DNA from: Malacoraja senta
Lineage: Eukaryota
Reading direction: 5' to 3'
Length of the DNA: 64,000 bases
Assembly: GCA_038087875.1 (NCBI GenBank)
Contig: CM075993.1
Location: 10,542,001 to 10,606,000 of the forward strand
The stretch's first letter is position 1. Every line of letters begins with the position of its first letter. Of this stretch, positions 15,640-35,156 are shown piece by piece. Position numbers and translations under genes: made by a program. The notes beneath the pieces were generated by a model. It ran no database searches and was not told the DNA's origin. It was given only the letters and a program-made list of their open reading frames with translations.

Positions 15640-16450
15640 ATTCGCATCTCCTCTGTGCCCCATAGTTCTGCTCTCGCTGCCCCGCTGCCAGTCAGGAAAA
15701 GGATAGAGTTCCCTGTTTTTTTTATCCACATACAACACATCTTTCTCCCACATTTCTGTCATCTCCAACACGATCTCGCCACAGGTCGCATCTTCTCTTC
15801 CTCACTCCTTTCTGTCTTCTGCAGAGATCGCTGTCTCCACAACTCACTCACCCAAACCACCCCGTCCCCAGGTAATTTCCACTGCAACCACAGATGTAAC
15901 CCCCCTGCCAGACCACCTCCCACACATGCATCCAGGAACCCCAGCAGACCTTCCATGTGAGACAGAGGTTCACGTGCACCTCCTCTAACCTTATCTACTG
16001 CATTCGGTGTTGCCAATGTGGCGTCCTGTACATTGGCGAGACCAAGCGTAGACTCGAAGACTGTTTCACCGAACACTTGCACTCGATTCATCAAGGATGT
16101 TGGATCTCCCAGTTTCTAACCATTTTAATTCCCCTTCCCATTCTCATACTGACCTTTGTTTCCTGGGCCTCCTCCATTGCCAGAGTGAGGCCACACGCAA
16201 ACTGGAGGAACAGCACCTCATTTTCCATTTGGGTACCTCATGTCCGGCCATTGTACAATCATCTGACTATCAAAATAAGCCCACACACGTATCCACCTAT
16301 TACTCAACAGGCTTTGTCGTGCCTCTCCTCTCTTCCAGCTTTCTTGTCCCCCACCCCCATGATAACACAATGCAGAAGGGTCCCGGCCCAAAACGTCGCC
16401 TATCCATGTTCTCCAGAGATGCTGCCTGACCAGCTGAGTTATTATTCCAA
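15640..16450 (+). mobile_element. Penelope-like GIY-YIG fragment
   Basis: RQRFTCTSSNLIYCIRCCQCGVLYIGETKRRLEDCFTEH...RKLEEQHLIFHLGT. Confidence 0.85.
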
Positions 16451-17421: not shown

Positions 17422-17607
17422 CCTTATGACAGTTTGCCTACCTCACAAACCTGCTTCTTCCAGCTGCGGCTGCCGCCGTACTCCAGCCAGTCCGTCATGG
17501 CTGAACGACTGCGCTACGCTATCAACAACTGCAGGTCCATCGACATGGACAACTACATGTTGTCCCGCAATGTGGACAACACAGAAGGCTCCGACACAGA
17601 TTACTGA
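17422..17607 (+). CDS. HERC1: HERC1 final coding exon with HECT catalytic Cys
   Basis: acag|CCT TAT GAC; PYDSLPTSQTCFFQLRLPPYSSQSVMAERLRYAINNCRSIDMDNYMLSRNVDNTEGSDTDY* (TGA 17605-17607). Confidence 0.97.
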   Translation, partial: PYDSLPTSQTCFFQLRLPPYSSQSVMAERLRYAINNCRSIDMDNYMLSRNVDNTEGSDTDY

Positions 17608-18064
17608 TACTCCAAACAAAAACGACTGCACTGGGAGCTACAGTGAGTGAGCCTTCTGCTATTGTATGTGAACGTGACTACTGCAGTTTAGTGAGAAGCC
17701 CAGAAAATTTTAATTGTATATGTACTTGAAGAAAAATGAATGTGATTGACAAATGTTATTGTTTGAATTTTAATTTCAACTATAAACAGGTTTAAGAAAA
17801 AAAAATGCAATTCTCCTCCTGGTTTTGTTCCTTTTTTGTTCAGTTTTGGATAAGTTTGCATGGAGATAATTTGGTGCATTTCTGAGAATGGTATAAATGA
17901 TCCCTCCCAGCGTTAGAGGGCTACAAAATTACAGTTTAAAAGAAAATGTACATTGTGTATAATTGTTCATGAGGGAGAGCAATTTTACATAAATATTCTT
18001 ATATTTATTTTTGTTTTCTTTTGAATTGCCTGTGCTGAGTTTCCCATCAGACGTACATCAGAAG

Positions 18065-18070
18065 AATAAA
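18065..18070 (+). promoter_or_regulatory. Probable HERC1 polyadenylation signal
   Basis: AATAAA about 460 bp after the stop, ending an AT-rich repeat-free 3' UTR and followed by T/GT-rich sequence. Confidence 0.6.
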
Positions 18071-20199
18071 ACATTAATTTAAAGCCACTTGTTTGTACTA
18101 ATTGTCATCGTTCCAATTAATAACATAGAATCTCAATGTTATTTTCCCGCCAGAAGAAATATTTTGATTTTGTACTGATTTTATTTTTTGTTTGCAACAT
18201 GACGTAGAGGAGATGCTAAAATAGAGAATGATCTCATGATATTTGGAGGGCGTGTTATGAGGTGCCCGTTAAATTTAGAGCAAAATGCGAAGTGCTGGAG
18301 AAACTCAACGCGTCCGGCAGCATCTGCGGGAAGGAATTGACAGGCAATGTTTCAGGTGGGGACTTAAATTTAGTTCCACGTCTAGATTTCAATACATCCT
18401 GTTTGAATTTGCTCATCACACTCTCAATTAAAAATCTCATCCACAATAGTCACTTTATTTTCCGGCTCTGTTTTATAATTTAATTTGAGTTCACAAGTTT
18501 ATCTGTAAACAGTTCAATTTTCAATAAAATGACACATGCCACTTCCACTTCCAACTCCCACCTAGAGTGGATGTGTCCTTATCTGGCATTCTGCACTTCA
18601 ATGATGTGTCTTGCTGGGAGCTTGTGGTGGCACAGTGGGTGTCTGTGTTGCAAGGATTCTGTATCTTACCTCCCGGTTCTGATGGCTCTCTTTACATCCA
18701 ATAATATGCAGACATCATGGTGAGCCAGAGAATGGTAAATGTGAATCTATTTGGTATCAATTATATTCACAGTCAAATGCCACACCACTAGCAGCAGGAA
18801 ATTGTTTCCCAATCTTCTGCCGTTTAGTTTACAATGGATGTAAATGTTCCCCGGTTCTCATTCTGAAACTGGATCCGGCATTACTGCCCAAAGGCTCCTC
18901 TAATATCTTTGTTACTGCCTGTCCTAACCATCCTCAAGGAGGTGATGGTGAGCCAAAGTCTTGAATTCTCACCTGATTGTCAAATGTAAGGCCTGTAACA
19001 GGGTGGTCTTGGGAGCTGCAAGTCGGCAATAAAAATAGAAGAGAAAAAATAGTGAATGTTGGAAATATGAGAGGCAAACCTGAAATGGTTGAATTCCCCG
19101 TGATAATCAGCCTTGTATTTAGTTTAATGCTGGCGTAACTCAGCGAGACGGGCATCTCTGGAGAGAGGGAATGGGTGACGTTTCGGATCAAGATCCTTTT
19201 CAGACTGAGGAAGGGTCTTGACCCAAAACATCACCCATTCTTCTCTCCAGAGATGCTACCACTCCAGCATTTTGTGTCTATTTTCGGTAGAGCAGCATCT
19301 GCAGTTCCTTCCGACACATTGTATTTAGTTTAGTTTATGTGCTGATGTACAGTGACAGGCTTTTTGTTGTATGCTATTCAGTCAGCAAAAAGACTATATG
19401 TGATTAGTCAAGTCGGCCACAGTGCAGATCCAGGATAAAGAGAATAACGCTTAGAGCAAGATAAAATGTAATTGTAAAACAGAATCCAGTCTCAAGTTCC
19501 AACACATTTTCTGAAAATATTCTGCATCAAGAATAAAACAAGTTTATTTTTCACATCATAGCGTACCAAGTAACTCAGTGGGTCAAGCAACATTGCTAGA
19601 GGAGTATGCACCTATCACTTGCCAGGCTTTGTCCCACAGTCAGTCAGAAAAATCCCAACCCCAAACATCGCCAATCCATATTCTCCAGCGATGCTGCCTG
19701 ACCCGCTGAGTTACCCCAGCAATTTGTTTTACTCAGGATTCCAGCATCTGCAGTTCCTTGTGTCGCGCCTTTATGTTCAAATTTACAGGAAAGGCATTTA
19801 ATCATTTACTTGATCAGGATTTCAGGGTTCAGCCTGAAATAGATGAGGATGGGCCTCGATGTGGAGGCTGTTTCCACGAGTGGAAGAGTCCAGGACTAGA
19901 GGTCTAGCCTCAGAATTAAAGGACGTTCCTTTAGGAAGGAGATGAGAAAGAATTTATTTAGTCAGAGGGTGGTGAATCTGTAGAATTTTTTGCCACAGAA
20001 GGATGTGGAGACCAAGTCAATGGATATTATTAAGGCAGAGATAAATAGATTCTTGATTAATATGGGTATCAGAGGTTATGGGGAGAAGGCAGGAGACAGA
20101 GATAGATCAGTCATGATTGAATGGCAGAGTAGACTTGATGGGCTGAATGGCCTAAATCTGCTCCTATCATTTATGACCTTATGAAATAAATGGCTTGTC

Positions 20200-20348
20200 C
20201 TTGTGATTTTTCCCCCCTCAATGGCAGGGCACCATGTCACATCACCTCAATGAATCCAGACATTAGTGGCTGAAAACTAAGGCACTTTTCCGGTGTCAGT
20301 CAGGTTCCCATAGCAGCAGATGAAGTACTTCAGAAGTGTTGTTAATGT
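20200..20348 (-). pseudogene. Probable next exon of the HAUS6-like pseudogene
   Basis: Good acceptor ccttactttcag|; phase compatible with donor at 23208; ~148 bp with several stops; weak similarity (CLDSLR*CDMV vs FLQILQRQDCV); donor degenerate. Confidence 0.4.
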
Positions 20349-20532
20349 CTGAAAGTAAGGTAAGTAGAGGCCAAATTGTCACAAGAGTCAAGAGTGTTTT
20401 ATTGTCATATGTCCCAGATAGAACAAGGAAATTCTTCATTGCAGCAGCACAACAGAATGTGTAAACATAGTACAGTGTAAACAATATAATAAACAAGTAC
20501 AAAGTTCAGTTCAGTGTGTGTACACATACTTA

Positions 20533-21900
20533 CATTGTCCTCCAGAATGTTTGGGACAAAGACCCAGCATTTATTTATTTGCCTCTGTACTCCACAATTT
20601 GAGATTTGTAATAGAAAAAAAATCACATGTGGTTAAAAGTTCACATTGTCAGATTTTATTAAAGGGTATTTTAATACATTTTGGTTTCACCATGTAGAAA
20701 TTACAGCAGTGTTTATACATAGTCCTCCATTTCAAGGTACCACAATGTTTGGGACACAGCAATGTCATGTTTAGTATTTTGTTTCATATCCTTTGCATGC
20801 AATGACTGCTTGAAGTCTGCGATTCATGGACATCACCAGTTGCTGGGTGTCTTCTCTGGTGATGCTCTGCCAGGCCTGTATTGCAGCCATCTTTAGCTTA
20901 TGCTTGTTTTGGGGGCTAGTCCCCTTCAGTTTTCTCTTCAGCATATAAAAGGCATGCTCAATTGGGTTCAGATTAGGTGATTGACTTGGCCACTCAAGAA
21001 TTGACCCTTTTTTAGCTTTGAAAAACTCCTTTGTTGCTTTAGCAGTATGTTTGGGATCATTGTCTTGCTGTAGAATGAACCGCCGGCCAATGAGTTTTGA
21101 GGCATTTGTTTGAACGAGCAGGATGTGTCTATACACTTCAGAATTCATTATGCTACTACCGTCAGCAGTTGTATCAATAATGAAGATAAGTGAGCCAGTA
21201 CCTTCAGCAGCCATACATGCCCTGGCCATAACACCCCCACCACCGTGTTTCACAGATGAGGCGGCATTTTTGGATCTTGGGCAGTTCCTTCTCTCCTCCA
21301 TACTTTGTTCTTGCCATCACTCTGATATAAGTTAATCTTCGTCTCATCTGTCCACAAGACCTTTTCCAGAATTGTGGTTGTTTTTTTATGTACTTCTTGG
21401 CAAACTAACCTGGCCATCCTATTTTTGCAGCTAACCAGTGGTTTACATCTTGCAGTGTAGCCTCTGTATTTGTGTTCATGAAGTCTTCTGCGGACAATGG
21501 TCATTGACAAATCCACACCTGACTCCTGAAGAGTGTTTCTGATCTGTCGGACAGGTGTTTGGGGATTTTTCTATATTATTGAGAGAATTCTTCTGTCATC
21601 AGCTGTGGAGGTCTTCCTTGGCCTGCCAGTCCCTTTGCGATTAGTAAGCTCACCAGTGCTACTACAGTCAGCAGTTGTATACTTACATTGTCCTCCATAA
21701 TGTTTGGGACAAAGACCCATCATTTATTTATTTGCCTCTGTACTCCACAATTTGAGATTTGTAATAGAAATTGTGTTCTTAATGATGTTCCAAACAGTTG
21801 ATTTTGGTAAGCCTAAGGTTTGGCTGATGTCTCTAACAGTTTTATTTTTGTTTCCCAGTCTCATAATGGCTTCTTTGACTTTCATTAGCACAACTTTGGA
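20533..21900 (-). mobile_element. Tc1 (DD34E) transposon, IR/DR type, decayed and truncated at its 5' side
   Basis: Frameshifted transposase: HTH (KTVRDISQTLGLPKSTVW), VLWTDETKI, QQDNDPKH-34-SPNLNPIE; TIR starts after TA at 20531-20532 and has direct repeats AATGTTTGGGACA near 20546 and 20744. Confidence 0.9.
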
Positions 21901-21904
21901 AAAT

Positions 21905-23005
21905 TTAAAAAGCGGGCCTTGCAATGACTGCATCTCCCAGCGGGCCTCCAGTAGGATGACGCATGTTCCCTCTCCAGGACGTAAGCCTGGAAAAGGGGCA
22001 GGCAGCCTACCCCGGTGTGGCCGTCGACTACCTGTTGCTTGGACCCGCGAATGGCCCTCTTGGCCAGGTCCAGGAGCAGACCGACAGGGAGACTCCCCTT
22101 TCCCTCCAGACCCTCTCCTCTCTGTGCCCAATATCAGGTGCCTGGGGCAAAAATGTAGCCAATGCTTGAGGAGCAGTACCTTCAGATAGTCGAACAGGGG
22201 CTGCAACCTCTCACACTGCACGTACAAATGAAACACGGTCTCTTCCTCGCCGCAGAAGTGACAGGCGGCTGGCGATTCCGTGAACCGGCTCAAGTACCTG
22301 TTACAGGCCACAGCCATGTGCAACACTCTCCACCCCAGGTCCCCGATGTAAAAGGGGAAGACTCCCTTATAGAGAGACCTCCATTGGGGACCGCTCCTGC
22401 GGTCAGGTGGTAGCAAGGGCGTGTCAGGACGGAGGGCGAGGAAGTGTAGAGTGTGCAGGAGCAGCCTGCACAGTACGTGCCTCTCAGCGTCACAGAACGG
22501 CACGCTGGGCATCTCGGAAAGGCGGTTAATGCTGCCTGGGGCCGGCTCTCGGGAAGGGACCCGGGCCGTGGGTCCTATGAGCAATTCCGAAGGAGCTGGG
22601 ATAAGCTCGGCCGGAATTGCTCCACGCACACGCCTCTCCTCGATACCCACCTTGACAGGGTGAGGACCGGCCACCCTCGTAGCCACAACACCCTCCCCCC
22701 CTGAGGAGCAGCGCCCTGGCTGAAGGTGACCAGATTCCTGGCTTTAAGTAGATCACGATAAAAGCCCTGCATGTCGACTGATGCCCGCTGCCGGGAGTTC
22801 TGTGCCCTCCTGGTGACAGTGCCCTGGCAGAAAAAATACATCGCCAGCGCATGCCATCTAAGAGGACACTCGGAATACATATACCTCCGCAGGGTCCTGA
22901 GACAGAGAACTGCCACCTGGGTACGGACGCAAACCAGCGCCTGACTGCCCGCCTTCAACGGGAGACTCAGAACCCCAGTAGAGACCCAATGATTCCTCTG
23001 CATGG
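21905..23005 (-). mobile_element. Tx1/L1-clade non-LTR retrotransposon ORF2 C-terminal fragment
   Basis: HWVSTGVLSLPLKAGSQALV (post-RT) and zf-RVT-like WRVLH...CHFCGEEETVFHLYVQC; GC-rich; frameshifted. Confidence 0.8.
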
Positions 23006-23112
23006 CCCACTGGGAGTTGTAGTGTGCCGCAAGGCCCGCTGGGAGCTGTAGTGTGCCGCAAGGCCCGCTGGGAGCTGTAGTCATTGCAAGGCCCGCAGGG
23101 AATTGTAGTCCT
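23003..23112. repeat. Four ~29-bp tandem units each with ACTACA(A/G)(C/T)TCCC
   Basis: GGGAGTTGTAGT, GGGAGCTGTAGT x2 and GGGAATTGTAGT at ~23012, 23041, 23070 and 23098. Confidence 0.85.
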
Positions 23113-23207
23113 GCATGGAGGCACGCTGAGAGGCACGCTAAAAATTATTTACAGTATATACACAATTATTTACAATATATACAGTCTAGCCCAACATAAT
23201 CACTTAC

Positions 23208-23700
23208 TTTCAAATTGTTTTTTAACTTTGTGTGAGTAGATATTTTGCAATAGCAAAATAAATTAATAAATTTAGGGCCTCCTGGAGAAAGAAATTAAGA
23301 AGCGACCACTTGAGGAAAAGTATTTCCAGCTTCAACAGCAATTTTGTTCATCTATTTATAGCATGCGTTTCTGAAGCACGCAGCACCAAGTGGGCCAACA
23401 ATCTCTGAGGATTTGCCACTTTTCATTTCACTGCACATCTCATATGTGTATGTGACGAATAAACTTGACTTGACTTGACTTGACAAAATCGGCATGTGTT
23501 TGGTCCAATTGCAAAAACAAATAGTGCACAACAATTTGGAACGCTTGCACATTCGGTCCGTCAAACACATCCGCGCCAGAGACGGAGCGCTTCACCGTTT
23601 GCTCGTCTCCTGGCGGCGTGAAGCCCAGATCCAACAGCATCTTCCACAGGATATTCTGGGCTGTAATCCTCCAGCACGATCCAGGAGCCGGCGTTGCATT
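23208..23700 (-). pseudogene. HAUS6: HAUS6 (augmin subunit 6)-like pseudogene, N-terminal domain segment
   Basis: ILWKMLLDLGFTP...ADVFDGPNVQAFQIVVHYLFLQLDQ [LINE-tail insertion ~23419-23483] ...RDCWP...FRNACYK*MNKIAVEAGNTFPQVVAS*FLSPGGPKFINLF resembles HAUS6 N-terminus (LWMYLQALGF...FPQVVGSLFLSPGGPKF); in-frame stops at 23352-23354 and 23295-23297, frameshifts; ends at GAAA|gtaagt donor. Confidence 0.85.
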
Positions 23701-23704
23701 GTAA

Positions 23705-24006
23705 TGGGCCTGTCCCACTTACAAGATTTTTTTCGGCGACTGCCGGCACCCGTCATAGTTGCAGCAGGTCGCCGAGAATTTTCAACATGTTGAAAATCCA
23801 GCGGTGACTCTTTGGGTGACCACTCACCATCATACAGGAGTCACCCCGCGACTTGCCTGTATGGTCGTGAGTAGTCGCCCAAAGAGTCGTACCTTTTTCT
23901 GGTCGCCGCTGCATTTTCAACATGTTGAAAATTTTCGGCAACCTGCTGCGACTATGACGGGTGCCGGCAGTTGCTGAAAAAAAATCGTGTAAGTGGGACA
24001 GGCCCA
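23705..24006. mobile_element. PIF/Harbinger-like MITE (near-palindromic)
   Basis: TIR TGGGCCTGTCCCACTTAC...GTAAGTGGGACAGGCCCA, long internal inverted repeat, TAA/TAA TSD. Confidence 0.85.
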
Positions 24007-24009
24007 TAA

Positions 24010-24715
24010 ATGGTCTGTCCCACTTGGGCGACCTAATCTGCGAGTTTAGAAGAGTGTCTTTGACCTTTAAGCTCGCAGCATGGCCGACACGAGGTCCTAT
24101 GAGGTCGCTGGAACTCTCCTTCATGCTCGAGGGAAGTTCCCGAATACTCGCGGCCTCAGCTAGGTCGCGGAAAATTCCGCGAGTAAAATTTGGTCATCAT
24201 GTGTCTTTTTAACTCGTAGTGCAGTGGAGTGGGGTCGCTATTTGGTTACAGGCAGTCGAGGGCAGCCGTAGGCAATCTCCTTCGCTGATCGGGCATTTTG
24301 ATTGGCTCATTGGAGTTTTCAGGACCAGGGAAAACCAACTGGTAGGTTAAATACCCGCTAAACTTTATTATACTTCTTAAAAGTGTCTCCACTCCTTCTC
24401 TCCCCTTCTCTCTCCTTCTTCCCCCTTCTCTTCCGCTTCTCCCCCTCCTCCCCTCGCGCTCTCTAAAGGACTTACCGTTACTGTGCAGCCGTTTTAGCTT
24501 CATCTTCATTGCGCAGACGGCGCTCCCCCGCTTTCCCTGGCCCTGGCCTTCGCGATGACTCTGTGTGTGTGTGTGTGTGTCGGTCGATGCAGCTCGCGGT
24601 TTCAACGAGGGCGGTCGATCCAGCTCGAGGCTTTCCAGGCGAGTGTCCTCGAGCTAGAAGGTCGAAGACACTCTTTTTAACTGGCCGATTAGGTCGCCCA
24701 AGTGGGACAGGCCCT
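24010..24715. mobile_element. PIF/Harbinger-like MITE adjacent to the previous one
   Basis: TIR ..CTGTCCCACTTGGGCGACCTAATC / GATTAGGTCGCCCAAGTGGGACAGGCCCT; flanked by TAA and TTA. Confidence 0.8.
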
Positions 24716-26034
24716 TTACTCTGTGGATGCCAGCTGCTGACTAATCATTCACTCCTTTCCCCAAGGAGGAGCATTTTATTTGACAGCGATAAAAGCCGTT
24801 CAGTTGCTATGGTTGAATTCTGAAAGAAGATCCAAAAGAAGGGATATAACATTTCTAGGACTCTGGAGAGAACTCGCTCACTCCCTATCTGCTGCGGACA
24901 AAATATATATTTGAAATAAACTGCAGAACTTTTAAATGTAAAAAATAATCTGTGTTTATGTTCCTACAAGACTGGGAAGAAGTTTCCTACAAACCTGCAT
25001 GTCTTTGGGATGTGGGAGGGAACTGAAGCACGCAGATGAAACCCACACGGTCACAGGGTCAATGTACAAACTTCACACAGAGAGCACCCGAGATCAGGAT
25101 CGAACCCGGGTCTCAGGCGCTGTGAAGCAGCAGCTCTACCCGCTGCACCACTGTGCCGACCCTGCAGAGATGAGCTTTACTGCCAGGAGTCAGGTTGGCA
25201 ATTTAAACATTACAATAGTGCTGTGTGAAACAGTGTTTCAGACCGTTACAGAGTTAACCCTGACTGCTGTGTTCCTGAGGGCAAAGGAAAACCCAATAGT
25301 TCGAGGGAAGGGTAAGCACCTTTATAGAAGCAAGATGGTTTCTTCCATCCCACCCAGCATCATAGAGCACCCACCACCAATCCCAAACACAGTGAAGGGG
25401 TAGGGAAAAGTGGACTGAGATCGGACTCTGCCGGGTCTTAGCATCACTAGATCAAACCTGTCATTGAGGTTGCGTTTTGGGTGGGGATTGCTTCAGGACC
25501 CTGACTGATATCCACACTACATGGGGGGCAAATATGCCTGGGATGTTTCCCCATCTGAGACTGATTCCCCACCCCACACTGCCCAGCCGACCAGTTCCTG
25601 TAGCTATCATAAGGTTATAAGTGATGGGAGCAGAATTTGCCCAATCAAGTCTACTCCGCCATTCAATCATGGCTGATCTATCTCTCCCTCCCAACCCCAT
25701 AAACCCTTGACACCCTTGTATCGTGGGCAGAATTTCTGGGCCAGGGAATGAACTAGAGGTCATCAGTGTGAGGCTTTCACCAATGGTCCAATGTACTTTA
25801 TTGTCACGTGTACCAATGTGCAGTGACAGTTTGTTTTGCATGCAGTTCAGTAAAACTCTTACGATACAAAAGCACAATCATATTGAAGTACAGAGTATAA
25901 GATGACCGATTACACTGAGGCAGTAAAAAATAAATCAGGTGGGACATTTGGAAGAAACTTTCTTCAGAGAACATGCAGCTCATCTCCACAGATGAGAGAA
26001 ATTGACAAGAGAGGTTCAGGAGACTGCAGGTGGA

Positions 26035-26470: not shown

Positions 26471-26732
26471 AGGTTCAGGAGACTGCAGGTGGAGGTTGAA
26501 GGAGATTTGGAACATGGATTTAGGTGAAGATAGACACAAAATGCTAGAGTAACTCAGCAGGGACAGGCTGGAGAGAGGGAATATGTGACGTTTCAGGTCG
26601 AGACTCTTCAGATTTAGGTGAACAAGCGAAGTTGGGAAGATTCAAGTGAAGCATAAGAGCCGCACGTTGTGAACAGTTTGTTCTGTGCTGGGGTCTCCTG
26701 GAAAAATAGGAAGTTGGGGTCCGGGCACCATT

Positions 26733-27384
26733 GCCCCCTGGTGGTGGTGAAGGCAGCAGCGCCCCCTGGTGGTGGTAAAAGGGGGCATCGCCCCCTGGTG
26801 GTGGTGAAAGGGGGCATCGCCCCCTGGTGGTGGTGAAAGGGAGCAGCGCCCCCTGGTGGTGGTGAAGGGAGCAGCGCCCCCTGGTCGTGGTAAAAGGGGG
26901 CATCGCCCCCCTGGTGGTGGTGTAAGGGGGCATCGCCCCCTGGTGGTGGTGAAAGGGAGCAGCGCCCCCTGGTGGTGGTGAAAGGGGGCATCGCCCTCTG
27001 GTGGTGGTGAAAGGGGGCATCGCCCCCTGGTGGTGGTGAAGGGAGCAGCGCCCCCTGGTCGTGGTAAAAGGGGGCATCGCCCCCCTGGTGGTGGTGTAAG
27101 GGGGCATCGCCCCCTGGTGGTGGTGAAAGGGAGCAGCGCCCCCTGGTGGTGGTGAAAGGGAGCAGTGCCCCCTGGTGGTGGTGAAGGGGGCAAGCGCCCC
27201 CTAGTGGTGGTGAAAGGGGGCATCGCCCTCTGGTGGTGGTGAAAGGGAGCAGCGCCCCCTGGTGGTGGTGAAAGGGAGAAGCGCCCCCTGGTGGTGGTGA
27301 AAGGGGGAAGCGCCCCCTGGTGGTGGTGAAAGGGAGCATCGCCCCCTGGCGGTGGTGAAAGGGAGCAGCGCCCCTTTCACCACT
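26733..27384. repeat. 29-bp GC-rich minisatellite, 22 units plus a terminal inverted half-unit
   Basis: Unit GCCCCCTGGTGGTGGTGAAAGGG(G/A)GCA(T/G)C; variants recur at 174-bp (6-unit) spacing; minus strand reads CCACCAGGGGGCGC/A. Confidence 0.95.
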
Positions 27385-28174: not shown

Positions 28175-28517
28175 TTACCAGGGCAGTCGCTTCTTCCTCC
28201 CGTTCCCGAGGCTGTCGCTTGTGTCGGGCTGGTCAGGAATCATTGCAGCGCTGTGATCTGCACGGAGGCACAGTGAAGGGCAGGTCCGACCGATCCGGTC
28301 CAGCCCCTCCTGTGTGATATTCCGGCAGAAGTCCACGTGCAACGTCCTCACGTTGCCCCCGTAGATGGCAACGGCCTCCAGACTTTTGTCAGTCAGACGT
28401 GCACAGTTCTCCAGTTTCAACGTGTTTAGTTTGCTGCATCGCCCCAGGATTTGTGAGATGTAGTCATCTGTAAGGTGTCCACACCCAGCAAGGGTTAATG
28501 ACAGCAAGTTTGGACAC
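28175..28517 (-). CDS. FBXL22: FBXL22 coding exon 2 (leucine-rich repeats) to stop
   Basis: ttttttcag|[28 protein letters not shown]...[14 protein letters not shown]...VDFCRNIT; joins exon 1 in frame to give 225 aa. Confidence 0.93.
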
Positions 28518-31500
28518 CTGAAAAAAGATCACAATGATTATAGAGATTGCAATTGACTTAAAGTCTGGGCTTTAGTCTGTATTACTGCATGTAATGCAGA
28601 CTAAAGCATACACACTTGCCCAGACAACAGATCAAGGAGCACGGCCAGTGACCAGACTGAGACCACTTCTCTCTGGGACCATCTCTCCCTGGTATAATGG
28701 ACAATGGTTACACCCACCAAAACGAACAGATTATTGGTTTATCTGGGGAACTACTTACTACACAGTAGTTACCTGCTTTGTTTCAGACATAATTCAAAAA
28801 CACCCACTGACAGTAACGCACTGGAACTGAAATAGAGAACACATAGAAAATAGATGCAGGAGTAGGCCATTCAATATGATCATGGCTGATCCAGAATCAG
28901 TACCCCCATATCCCTTGATTCAGTCGTGAAGTTGGGGGGAAAAGCTGACTTTCTTTGGGGTGGCACCAGTGCCAATGGTGGCCCACGCACCTCCAGCTCT
29001 TCCCTCTCCACTGTAGAGCTGGTGGCTCTGTGAGAAGTTGTCAGAGACAGTCGCTGTGTTACTGCAGTGAATCCAGGAACAGTGACTGGTGCACCAGTGG
29101 TAGTGAGGAGATTCCATCTGTTTAATATGTTGTGCAAACTATCCTTTATAAAAGTATAACGTTGTCCACCTAACCTACCCGGTCATTGCTCAAACAAATT
29201 GCATTAGTTCTGTATTATTAGCAGAGCAAACATTTCGTAGAAAAGTTCAAACAAAATTGACACATGGCCAGAGGGCAAGCTTGAGAGTGAAGTTGAACTG
29301 GTCTGAGACGATTCATACGATCGATCCCCTCTCGTGTGCCCGTATATAGATCAGCCATGATTGAATGGAGGAGTAGACTTGATGGGCCCAATGGCCTATT
29401 TCTGCTCCTCTCACTTCTTGGACATGTGGAGTTGAGTGCACCTGATCGCACGTGTTTAGTGCTGGCAGCCAAAAGTAATTGCCTCCCTCTGCCCCCTGTG
29501 ACTCAAGAATGGTCAGTGAAGTGGGCTTTGGGGATTTTCCCAAAGGAAAAGTGGATTTAAGGAGGAATTCCAGAACTCAGGATACAGAGGGACTAGAAAT
29601 GGCAAATCCTGAAGGTTGGGGCCAGAATGTGATGATCACAAATTGCTGAATTTGGTTGTCGTGACCCAAGGCCTGAATGCAGTACAGGATGTGGTACCCC
29701 GGGCTTCATTAGACCAGTGGACAAGGTCAGCGTGCAAGTTGAGTGCAGAATTAAACTGTGCCAGCCTAAGCGGAGAGTCACATCGGAGCACTGAGTTCTG
29801 GTGTTGTGTCGGCCTGTAACTGCTCTGCTTCTCCAAATGTGGGTACCAGGTTGGCAACCATGAACGTAGCAACAATTGGAAGAAGTGGTCACTTCCCTGG
29901 AAGGATCGGTTGGGTCCCTGGATAACAAGAAGGGAGAAGTAACGGCAGAACCTGCAGCACCAGCAACTGACTGCATTAATCAATCCCCTTCAGCATCCCC
30001 GTCTCCTGCTAAAGATGGGTCTCGATCCAAAACGTCACCTATTCCTTTTCTCCAGAGATGTTGGCTGACCCGCTGAGTTACTCCAGCATTTTGTGTCTCT
30101 CTTCGGTGTAAACCAGCATCTGCAGTTCCTTCCTACACATTCTCCAAACACAGGCGGCCCCCGGGTTCTGCAAGGAATTTGTTCTGGGAATTGTGAGCTG
30201 GTTTCTCCATGTCCATTTTCTTCTGTAGCCCATATGGTATCCTGTAACTCATCTAACTTCATTTCATTCAGTAATCACCCTAACACTACCTGTAATTAAA
30301 CTAATGGAATGTACACGGTATATAGACATTAATATCATGAAACATCATTAGCTTGAAGATACGTAAAAACATCTGCGTAAACCCGTTTATTCAAAGTTAT
30401 TCATAAGCCCAGGAGCCCCTGAACTTGTTACTCTTTTCCCCTGGTCTTGTGTAAATCTTGCTCTCAAAAGGAGTTTGAAGTTGGAGTTTACTTTAGAGAT
30501 ATAGCACGGAAACAGGCCTTTCGGCCCACTGGGTCCATACTGACACTAGTTTGATGTTATCCCACTACCTAAACACTAGGGGTAATTTACAGAGAGTCAA
30601 TTAACCTACAAACCTGCACATCTTTGGGAAGTGGGAAGTGGGAAGAATCCGGAGCACCCGGAGGAAACCCACGCGGTCACAGGGAGGAAGTGCAAACTCC
30701 ACACAGACAGCACCCGAGGTCAGGATTGAACCTGGGTCTCTGGCGCTCCAAGGCAGCAACTCTACCTGCTGTGCCACCCTTGAAGGTGAGGAAGGAAGGG
30801 AATACCACTCGGGCAAGGGTGATGTCTGTGGTAGTGCAGGACACGGAAGGGGCATGGATGAGGCCGCTGGGGACATGATCTCAAGGGGGGTGTATAGTGT
30901 CTGACTCAAATGGCTTCACGGACCCCTTTGTTGATGAGGCTGGAGAAGGCAACAGAAGGATGATTGGAAGGAGGGATCAGCAGTGTGCGGTGGAGAGGCC
31001 TGGAGTTATCAGGGCATTGCAGGATGGCCCTGCATCTACTGAGCAGTGGTGGCACTTTACACCTAGCTACACATGACAATAAAGTATCGAACATCCAGCT
31101 GTCATCCCATTCTCATGTAACAGCTTCAGTCTCATCATAAAATCCTGCTCCATGTTCCCCTCTAGCTTACAACTACAGAGCACACAATACTTTGATGAAT
31201 GACAAAAATAATGCGTAGAGGGTGCATGAGAGAGCCCGGAATGAAGGCGTGGAGCCAGGCAAATTCTGTAGAGGCTTTAATGAGCACAGCAAACTACTCT
31301 CCGCTTCAGTGAGAGACTGAAGACTGGTCTCGTGCCAAAAATCCCTGCTCTTATCTCGTGGCTGGGAGCCGCCCCCGGACCGGTCCATCAAGTGCAGAGG
31401 GGGATGAACCAGGGAGTGGCCTACTCGCCAGGAACCACCACAAATGTTTAGTTCCATGAAAGTGGCCGCATGGGTCGGTAGGATGGTGAAGAAGCGTTTG

Positions 31501-34500
31501 GCACACTTGTCTTCATCCGTCAGTGTTTAGTTTACAGAAACAGGTACGGGTGTGGGGTTATGGGGAGAAGGCAGGAGAATGGGTTGAGGAGGGAGAGATA
31601 GATCAGCCTTGCTTGAATGACGGTCAACTTGATGGGCCGAATGGCCTAATTTTGCTCCTATTACTTATGATCTCATGAACAGGCTCTTCAGCCCACACCG
31701 ACCTACGATCTCCGCACAGCAACACTATCCTACACACTAGGGACAATTTACAATTTTACCAAGCTAATTAACCTACAAACCTGTACGTCTTTGGAGTGTG
31801 GGAGGAAACCTGAGCACCCTGAGAAAACCCACGCGGTCACTGGGAGAACGTACAAACTCCGTACAGACAGGACCCGTAGTCAGGATCAAACCCGGGTCTC
31901 TGGCGCTGTAAGGCAGCAACTCTACCACTGCGCCACTGTGCCTATAGGCAAATTGATTGCATGGACATGTTGGGCCGAACTTCTTGTTTCTGTGGTCTAT
32001 GATAATGTTAATAATATCATTCTAGTGAAGAAAATAACAGTTGGCCAGGGCAGTTCAGAGTCACCTACCCCACACTGCCCCGCCAATCCATGTCTTCGTG
32101 GTCCAATATCCTTCAACTTAAAGAGTCCCGACCCAAAATGCCACGAGCATTCCCTCCACAGATGTTGCCTGAACCGCGGAGTTACTCCATCACTTTGTGT
32201 TTTGCTCCAGATTCCAGCATCTGCTGTTCCTTGTGTTGCCTTCAGTATTCGATATACAGTCTCAGCCAGCAGGCAAAGAGCTAATCGCATGGGTGAAGGC
32301 ATGGGAAGCTATCAAAGCAAGCTGGGAGCGAGCAATCACATATCACAGCACTGGGGCACATTTGCTCTGCTCCTCGTCCCCTGACGCACCCATTCAGCAC
32401 CTCCCTGATCATCTCCTCCTCCCGGCAATGCGTTCCTCACCCCAACCTCTCCCTGCACCCACACAACATCCTTGTGTTCACTTTGACAACTCTGGCAATG
32501 AGAACGAACTCCATCTGTCTACATGGTTGTAACTACCTCTATCAGAGTTCCTCACAACTCGCATCTGTTTCAAGAACAGCTTCTATTTCTTCACATAAAT
32601 AAAGTGCCTCATGCTTGGAGTAATTTTGCTAAATCTTCTTCAATAATTTCCCAGTCTTCCCTAACAGAGCTGTTGTGACGGAACCAATGTGTGATAGGAG
32701 TGTGTGGTGACATCCTTGCTCTAGTAGTCTGCCTTCATGTATAAACCCCTGGATTCTGTACACTTTGAATTCACATTCTTAATCTGCCCTGTCATAAGTT
32801 CATAAGTTATAGAAGCAGAATTAGGCCATTTTGACCATCAAGTCTACTCCGCCATTCAATTATGTCTGATCTATGGTTCCCTCTCAACCCCATTCTCCTG
32901 CCTTCTCCCCATAACCCCTGACACCCGCACTAATCAAGAATCTGTCAATCTCTGCCTTAAAAACATCCATTGACTTGACCTCCACAGTCTTCTGTGGAAA
33001 TTAATTCCACAGATTCACCACCCTCTAAAGAAATTCCTCTTCATCTCCTTCCTAAAGGTGTGTCCTTTCCAACAAACCATGCACAAACCCCAGACATCCT
33101 GTTCCTGTGCCCCTTGTAGAATTGTTCCCTCTAGTTTACACAGTCTTTCATTCTTCCTGCCATAAATGTAGTACTTCTCGGCATTAAATCTCATCGTCTA
33201 CCCATTCCACTGGCTGGTCTGTATGTGCTTGACGACTATTAGTGTGCAATGTCTCCAAGTTAGCCACAGAGTCGTACATCACGGAAACAGGATCTTTGGC
33301 CCAACTTGCCTATGCCAACCAAGATGCCCCATCTTCACTATTCCTACCTGCCCGTGTTTGGGCCTTATCGCTCTGAAACGTTCCTATCCATCAGACGGTG
33401 GTCGAGGACTGGCCACGGAGAACAAAGTGAGACCCCCGCATGAGTGGACCACCGAGAACTAAGGTGTAACGGTCCTGCACACCTGGGTCCAAGTTACACG
33501 TGGGCTGCCTCCAGCCCCAGGAGATTCCCCCAAACTGGGGAAAAATCCTTACCTGCTGCCACTCTGCCCATTCTCTGTCCCTGCTATTCCACAGGCTTCA
33601 AACTAAAGGGCTTGCATGTTACACGCACTTTAGGAATTATAATAACACTTCCATCATTCCTTCAACAAATGGTGCTTTTCAAGTTATTTAGAAACGATTT
33701 ACTTGCAACGTCTACCCTACCTTTAACTGATCAATCCAAACTTGTCACAATTAATTTAGTTTTAGTGATACAGCAGATACATCAAGTCCACACCGACCAT
33801 CGATCACCTGTTCACACCAGTTCTATGTTATTCCGCTTTTTCCATCAATATAATAATAATAATAATAATAATGGATTGGATTTATATAGCGCCTTTCTAA
33901 TACTCAAGGCGCTTGAGTATTAGAAATATACTATTTCTATGAATATTATGAATATACACTGAGGCAATATACAGAGGGCCAATTAACCTACAAATCTGCA
34001 CGTCTTTGGAATGTGGGAGAAAACGGGCACCTGGAGGAAACCCACGTAGTAATGAGGAGAACATGCAAACTCCTCACAGACAGCACCCAAGGTCAGGATG
34101 GAACACGGGTAAATTCTGTCCCTGATTATTGATTCTAGAACCTTCCTCACCACTGTAGTTAGGGGTTGTCCCAATATCTTATTCTGAGTAATGGTGTAAC
34201 ATTTGCAGTTTTCCATTCTCAGGCACCACCCGTGGATCTACAGGCGTTTGGAAGAACAAGGCCAGGGTGTTTGAGTTCCCCGAGCACCAGAGGACTGCAA
34301 CATTGAACATGTTAGTTTTTAACAATGTCTTCAGTTCCTCTTGTAAAAAGCATTCAGTGTTCAAAAGTTCATACGTTCTAGGAACAGAATTAGGCCATTT
34401 GTCCCATCAAGTCCCTTTTACCACAAAGTGTTGGTGGATGTATGGAACAAGCTGCCAGAGGAGGCTGGGACTATTCAAACATTTTTAAGAAACAGTTAGA

Positions 34501-34726
34501 CAGGTACATGGATAGGGCAGGATGGGAGGGATATGGACCAAACGCAGGCAGGTGGGACTAGTGTAGCTGGGACATGTTGACCAATGTGGCCAGGTTGGGC
34601 CGAAGGGCCTGTTTCCACATTGTATTCCTCTACTCCGCCATTCAATCTATCTTTCCCTCTCAACTCCATTCTCCTGCTCTCTCCCCATAACCCTGGCAGT
34701 GAGGAGATGTTCTGCCTTCTACTGAC

Positions 34727-35061
34727 CTGTAGCTGACTTCAGCCAGGAAGCCATTGACCAGAGTGTGGTGACGGCTGCAGATGTCCCTCTGGAAGCTGCT
34801 CTTGGCCCAGTCTTCAATGTTACACACCTTGACTCGGCTGGAGTGCCAGCAGATAGCCAACGATCGCAGCGCGGGGCTGAGCACAAAGTTGTCCTTCTTT
34901 AGCTCTGACGGTGAGGAGAAGCACAGCAGGGACCACAGAGCAGGGTCATGGAACACTCCCCGCAGCGTTCTGCAGGTCGCTGACATACTCTTCCTGTTCT
35001 CCTTATCCAAAAAGGAGAAAATATGCAGCAGGCACTCTCGGTTTAAATCTGTCAGCAGCAT
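34727..35061 (-). CDS. FBXL22: FBXL22 coding exon 1 (F-box)
   Basis: ATG at 35061; [26 protein letters not shown]...[14 protein letters not shown]...; donor TAC AG|gtcagt; located between USP3 and HERC1 as in human. Confidence 0.93.
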
Positions 35062-35156
35062 TGGAAGCTAGTCTTTGCACCCTGGCTCCACGGAGCAAAT
35101 TACAAAGCAACTTCTGGGAAATCTGCCTCATCCAGGCTGCTCGAACAGCAACGTGG

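Follow-up and report, generated by a model that had tools for sequence, protein, structure and literature searches.

The window analysed here, 64,000 nucleotides of Malacoraja senta DNA (NCBI GenBank assembly GCA_038087875.1, contig CM075993.1, positions 10,542,001 to 10,606,000 of the forward strand), carries on its minus strand a decayed copy of the 5′ part of HAUS6. The copy sits between two convergent genes, one on the plus strand with HECT-domain exons and one on the minus strand with F-box and leucine-rich repeat (LRR) exons. An initial annotation had described the locus as a HAUS6-like gene with a fused first segment and a retained downstream intron, perhaps a dying ohnolog. Positions below and in Table 1 count from the first letter of the window.

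The Pfam family HAUS6_N matches the minus strand of the window at E 6.7e-10, tblastn with batoid HAUS6 does so at E 2e-33, and our own profile, made from 15 full-length chondrichthyan HAUS6 proteins and run against six frames of the window, finds domains at 23658-23482 and at 23387-23196 (E about 1e-21), with E 2.9 for the next-best match in the window. The N-terminal homology reported in the initial annotation is thereby confirmed. When frameshifts are allowed for, Rhinoraja HAUS6 aligns with the window from its residue 2 (at 23675) as far as residue 138 (at 23209). With all three batoid queries the alignment ends at 23209, and the exon 1-4 scores are 336-364 where the background median is near 30. 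The copied segment, residues 2-138 of skate HAUS6, includes the region of the CH-domain basic patch.

By its sequence, the copy encodes nothing today. Its start codon is damaged, five codons are deleted, and the alignment to Rhinoraja places about four frameshifts, near 23656, 23391, 23258 and 23230. Nonsense codons at a conserved Trp and a conserved Leu were seen again, as first annotated. The insertion taken at that time for the tail of a long interspersed nuclear element (LINE) is present as 72 nt at 23481-23410; its LINE-type character is read from the sequence, and its family, presumably a LINE or short interspersed nuclear element (SINE), is our assumption. No close copy of this insert occurs elsewhere in the window. 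A 66-codon open frame starting at 23640 was rejected as a live reading frame: its ATG occupies a Thr/Ala position of other HAUS6 proteins, and the frame enters the insert.

Columns nearly invariant across 22 gnathostome proteins have changed in 8 of 43 cases and columns invariant in batoids only in 8 of 40 (Fisher p 1.0, with small numbers), so the alignment gives no sign of any period of constraint, as expected if the copy was dead from the start. In a simulation at 10% nucleotide divergence, 21% of residues change and 1.6 stops are expected, and two stops are observed; the copy would thus not be recent, having undergone about 10% nucleotide decay. Five basic residues of HAUS6 are described as binding microtubules in PMC12373997. 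Three of the five are lost in the copy, one by deletion and two by replacement with Asn, as assigned by alignment offset. The 5′ half of the copy (23482-23700) has a CpG observed/expected ratio of about 1.0 (15 CpG in 219 nt) versus 0.45 for the window, and this segment may escape germ-line methylation.

Which introns does the parent possess? In P0132, a skate-type protein of 71 residues taken from an assembled run, intron-3 read-in is followed by exon 4 and then by a read-through that closes in KQIESK*; P0134, a Callorhinchus fragment, opens with intron-3 read-in at the same exon boundary; and P0011, the Narcine HAUS6 model, contains exon 3 twice with intron read-in on both sides. Judged from these proteins, canonical chondrichthyan HAUS6 has introns 3 and 4, as well as intron 2 from one gene model (P0011). 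The duplicated exon and the read-ins of P0011 are probably an assembly or annotation artefact. The human gene presumably has introns at the positions matching chondrichthyan introns 2, 3 and 4. Intron 1 of the parent is more weakly indicated: Mobula birostris has one extra residue at the site, and skate isoforms begin at the next Met. The state of each site in the copy is given in Table 1. The idea that the 72-nt insert is intron 2 in shrunken form was rejected: it would require the loss of a codon and a substitution, and the content of the insert resembles an antisense LINE tail.

One base past the alignment end, at 23207-23202, stands the motif GTAAGT, 23 codons beyond the K of GPKF and in phase 1, which confirms the donor annotated about 25 codons after GPKF. 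Across the exon-4 junction the copy reads KQFESK*, versus KQIESK* in P0132. The motif occurs 25 times in the 128 kb formed by both strands of the window, a frequency of about 2e-4 per position. Because the homology stops at the exon-4 boundary and the read-through matches P0132, we take GTAAGT to be the parent's own intron-4 donor. The stub beyond it would derive from parent intron 4, with only its first bases tied to the parent. A search for the DNA of parent exon 4 confirmed none of the pattern matches that it gave: 0 of 49 in viral, 0 of 302 in prokaryote and 0 of 415 in metagenome contigs.

No further part of HAUS6 was found anywhere in the window, and nothing from exon 5 onward, by tblastn, alignments or our profile; weak matches at 15702-15803 and 30382-30435 are at background level. 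Candidate exons were scored by alignment, with about 396 random window segments as the null. The true exons 3 and 4, used as controls, scored 75.6 and 139.4, values reached by 0 of 397 and 0 of 396 random segments. The 148-bp exon claimed at 20348-20200, tried against batoid HAUS6 exon 5, scored 19.6 (on 20190-20360) against a null mean of 20.3; 208 of 396 random segments did as well, which places it at the null median, and it has an acceptor-like TTTCAG with no GT at its 148-nt end. The weaker exons claimed further downstream are also background: random segments scored as high in 76 of 396 cases for 19770-19833, 375 of 395 for 18973-19015 and 22 of 396 for 18360-18502, the last being the best of five tests and lacking a donor at its end. 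Two of the candidates touch multi-copy repeats at 19569-19779 and 18272-18365. Directly after the donor no exon-5 signal was detected (95 of 397 random segments as high). Since no downstream exon has HAUS6 homology, the locus would hold no retained intron between two exons, as had been claimed, just an intron stub. By its content, the supposed intron downstream of the donor is mostly younger mobile DNA.

Table 1. Features of the HAUS6 copy and its surroundings (positions in the window)
Feature	Position	Strand	Basis
Decayed HAUS6 copy, parent exons 1-4 joined	23208..23675	-	Pfam, tblastn, alignment, own profile
Premature stop TAG at conserved Trp (Trp89)	23352..23354	-	Frameshift-aware alignment
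Premature stop TAA at conserved Leu (Leu108)	23295..23297	-	Frameshift-aware alignment
72-nt insertion, LINE/SINE-type 3′ tail (AATAAA then CTTGA repeats)	23410..23481	+	Alignment; type read from sequence
Parent intron 1 site, seamless in copy	23572..23573	-	Position presumed from human HAUS6; fits Mobula birostris insertion
Parent intron 2 site, probably seamless; 5 nt from 72-nt insertion, so confounded	23404..23405	-	P0011 intron read-in at boundary
Parent intron 3 site, seamless in copy	23336..23337	-	P0132 and P0134 read-in at boundary
GTAAGT donor and AT-rich stub of about 70 nt, putative start of parent intron 4	23137..23207	-	Read-through match to P0132 tail
Formerly proposed 148-bp exon: unique intergenic DNA, not HAUS6, without donor	20200..20348	-	Exon scoring, own profile
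The three weaker candidates: matches no better than background, among repeats and outside copy	18360..19833	-	Exon scoring, own profile
29-nt units, four in tandem; a further, inverted one at 21912-21947	22996..23136		Repeat analysis
Non-LTR (long terminal repeat) retrotransposon ORF2 fragment (zf-RVT), cut at both ends	21950..22995	-	Open reading frames, Pfam
Rearranged Tc1-type transposon (HTH_Tnp_Tc3_2, DDE_3), two 92-nt end copies 98% identical	20520..21885	-	Pfam, repeats
Palindromic miniature element, TTA-type duplication, inserted about 28 nt upstream of copy	23704..24007		Repeat analysis

In trees built with canonical HAUS6, the copy groups with eight batoids (support 96/92) and does not branch before the split of bony and cartilaginous fishes. 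Support was 85/99 with a mis-cut Rhinatrema row included and 84/92 under LG+G4. The first tree had 24 rows, and the Rhinatrema row (12% filled) was dropped from later ones; S. canicula and Mustelus, N-terminally incomplete, were excluded, the duplicated exon of the Narcine model was removed before alignment, and no invertebrate or lamprey outgroup was used. Single characters agree with the trees. Of 13 columns that set batoids apart from sharks and chimaera, nine are batoid-type in the copy, one is shark-type and three are other; of ten columns separating chondrichthyans from bony vertebrates, six are chondrichthyan-type and none bony-type. The exon-1 loop has 17 residues in the copy, 18 in 8/8 batoids and 23-29 in 9/9 sharks and chimaera, with one bird also at 18. 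Identity to Rhinoraja HAUS6 is 73% over 126 columns, while Rhinoraja itself shares 64.5% with chimaera and 56.3% with coelacanth. Codon edit distances from the copy are 56.7-58.7 for three skates, 62-72 for other batoids, 80-98 for sharks and 112 for coelacanth. On these characters the copy is batoid-type. It probably arose on the skate line, and no more than probably because the seven strict skate-diagnostic columns split into two skate-type, three other-batoid-type and two other (approximately unbiased, AU, test p 0.27).

Does any living chondrichthyan keep a second gene of this kind? Among the best 120 of 229 matches, 17 rows are chondrichthyan, and each looks canonical, one gene apiece, 15 of the 17 on contigs >100 Mb; the canonical HAUS6 genes of three skates lie on contigs of 101-131 Mb. 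No second HAUS6-like chondrichthyan gene turned up among the matches listed, the cluster members or ten shorter proteins, in searches that were word- or cluster-limited. Protein searches with the copy itself returned only canonical HAUS6 and one chance match, P0124, an unrelated repeat protein.

How did a HAUS6 copy come to lack three introns and begin a fourth? We consider it likely to be a 3′-truncated semi-processed retropseudogene of batoid HAUS6. In a batoid ancestor, a HAUS6 transcript would have had introns 1-3 spliced out with intron 4 still held, or would have been cleaved and polyadenylated within intron 4. A LINE enzyme may then have reverse-transcribed this partly spliced RNA and inserted it between the two convergent genes, where the copy would have been dead on arrival and decayed neutrally, by about 10% substitution plus insertions and deletions. 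A LINE tail, miniature elements, the ORF2 fragment, the Tc1 element and at least one deletion would later have hidden its ends. The RNA origin, the use of LINE machinery, the age and the order of insertions are all proposed from the present arrangement of the DNA. Of the semi-processed copy considered in the initial annotation, the 5′ half stands, with introns 1-3 absent and the intron-4 donor kept; an intron between two exons does not.

Several observations weigh against a semi-processed RNA origin. No poly(A) signal or tail was visible in a scan of the stub, where younger elements cover the 3′ end and decay amounts to about 10%. No convincing target-site duplication was found: nothing in the stub or 20187-20525 matched, just short distant matches that lack a null. 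Two hallmarks of retroposition are thus absent or have been lost. Retrocopies are usually truncated at the 5′ end, not the 3′ end, as were 74% in one cancer set (PMC4151081). The stub's tie to the parent is limited to its first bases, and the intron-2 site can also be parsed as GT...AG through the 72-nt insert. The weightiest contrary result is that the AU tests, which ignore gaps and draw on about 130 informative residues, did not reject placement of the copy outside canonical chondrichthyan HAUS6 (p 0.283, 0.184). The strict skate-diagnostic columns, too, are divided. Nor does this origin account for the CpG ratio of the 5′ half, which is near 1.0.

The kept donor, and a poly(A) tail and target-site duplication that are not seen, would also suit a partial duplicate made at the DNA level from a HAUS6 allele or lineage without introns 1-3, these having been lost before or after, with the rest deleted; the neighbouring Tc1 element, its left end missing, indicates deletion damage at the locus. 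We regard this as unlikely, since skate-type and chimaera HAUS6 possess intron 3, and Narcine HAUS6 has both intron 2 and intron 3. Three exact intron losses with no sign of constraint would be unparsimonious, and no parent promoter-like flank could be recognised by inspection.

Distinctly unlikely is capture assisted by a transposon, either as a template-switch chimera of nascent HAUS6 RNA with a neighbouring LINE or as carriage by a DNA transposon. About 210 nt past the donor an ORF2 fragment starts on the same strand, an arrangement that would account for the absence of poly(A), and miniature elements flank the 5′ side of the copy. Between the stub and the ORF2 fragment, however, lie 141 nt of unrelated tandem units, and the fragment, itself truncated on the 3′ side, still contains long open frames. 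The element ends, 91-98% identical, look younger than the copy, and DNA capture would have kept the introns.

A fully processed retrocopy of the ordinary kind, its 3′ part deleted later and GTAAGT standing at the break by coincidence, is highly improbable, even though such retrocopies are far commoner and deletion damage is evident next door. The break would have to fall on the exact exon-4 boundary base and be followed by the parent's read-through, the motif alone having a chance of about 2e-4 to 6e-4 per position, and the lack of an exon-5 signal directly after the donor also tells against it. An ordinary recent retrocopy had been opposed to the initial annotation; the absence of homology in 20200-20348 agrees with it, and the apparent decay of the copy does not.

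An ohnolog or other ancient HAUS6 paralog, intron-containing and still intact in other chondrichthyans, is very unlikely and the least tenable origin because the copy is batoid-type: despite its decay it is closer to skate HAUS6 than skate is to chimaera or coelacanth, it shares the batoid loop deletion to which the AU test is blind, its diagnostic residues are of batoid and chondrichthyan type, it has no downstream exons and the chondrichthyan proteins among the matches listed all look canonical. In favour of such a paralog stand the unrejected AU placements, made with no invertebrate or lamprey outgroup, and a possible paralogy of the human regions 9p22 and 15q22.

Among known systems, the closest to a semi-processed retropseudogene of this kind is the TMF1 insertion in human CYBB, described in PMC4151081 as semi-processed, 3′-truncated and ending in intron 8 at an intronic poly(A) signal. 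As there described, the two share joined 5′ exons, intron sequence at the 3′ end, truncation inside an intron and a dispersed location. The TMF1 copy differs, in the same account, in being newly inserted, in carrying a poly(A) tail of 100 bp and in retaining all of intron 7; the HAUS6 copy has a stub of about 70 nt, no visible tail or target-site duplication, and is old and decayed. Retrocopies with remnant introns, such as ovine RPSAP8/RPSAP9 and rodent preproinsulin I, are very rarely reported according to PMC2850357 and PMC4151081, and partially processed retrogenes form a recognised class in a review (PMC5470649). On those descriptions, the ovine and rodent cases resemble the HAUS6 copy as retrocopies with an intron remnant. 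Preproinsulin I is a working gene that, as described, retains a whole intron; the HAUS6 copy has neither a downstream exon nor coding capacity. Its nearest relatives, the canonical skate proteins (Rhinoraja P0149, Amblyraja P0135, Leucoraja P0136), show 71-73% identity over the N-terminal 126 columns and the same short loop. In comparison with them, the copy comprises 138 of about 1020 residues, lacks introns 1-3 and has stops, frameshifts and a depleted basic patch. None of the papers listed by our literature searches describes a HAUS6 copy in a chondrichthyan or an intron-4 isoform; the supplements of skate genome papers, outside their scope, could list the pseudogene.

The copy has little significance in itself. 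It is a tidy case of an uncommon pseudogene class in a cartilaginous fish, three introns out and a fourth begun, and it removes an apparent HAUS6 ohnolog; if common to several species, it could mark batoid phylogeny by presence or absence. Greater importance would follow only if the RNA ending in intron 4 were a regulated isoform encoding an isolated microtubule-binding domain. We think it improbable that the copy is the fossil of such a regular HAUS6 transcript, one encoding little beyond the microtubule-binding CH region and closing in KQIESK*. Were it so, HAUS6 would have a conserved short isoform that could compete with augmin, and other rays might possess an intact or transcribed version of the retrocopy, whose 5′ half keeps the character of a CpG island.

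The mobile DNA around the copy has features of its own. The 29-nt units have an ACTACA-N-TCCC core, which we take to resemble a ZNF143-type promoter motif, and they bracket the ORF2 fragment, presumably of Tx1 type; together these may be a non-autonomous element carrying LINE sequence. In the Tc1-type element (20520-21885), the right end is duplicated inside the start of the transposase and the left end is missing. The fully palindromic element upstream of the copy (23704-24007), Harbinger-like by our assumption, is abutted by a second, related miniature inverted-repeat element at 24007-24718, with duplications of the TTA/TAA type.

A domain scan of the window placed the HECT-domain exons on the plus strand with a stop ending at 17607, the F-box and LRR exons on the minus strand at 28175-35067, and a UCH exon on the minus strand near 63 kb. 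From the order of the genes we take these to be HERC1, FBXL22 and USP3, respectively. An Rfam scan of 17500-24300 gave no match. Downstream of the last exon of the F-box gene, a GC-rich minisatellite of about 0.7 kb (26720-27380) yields long spurious open reading frames.

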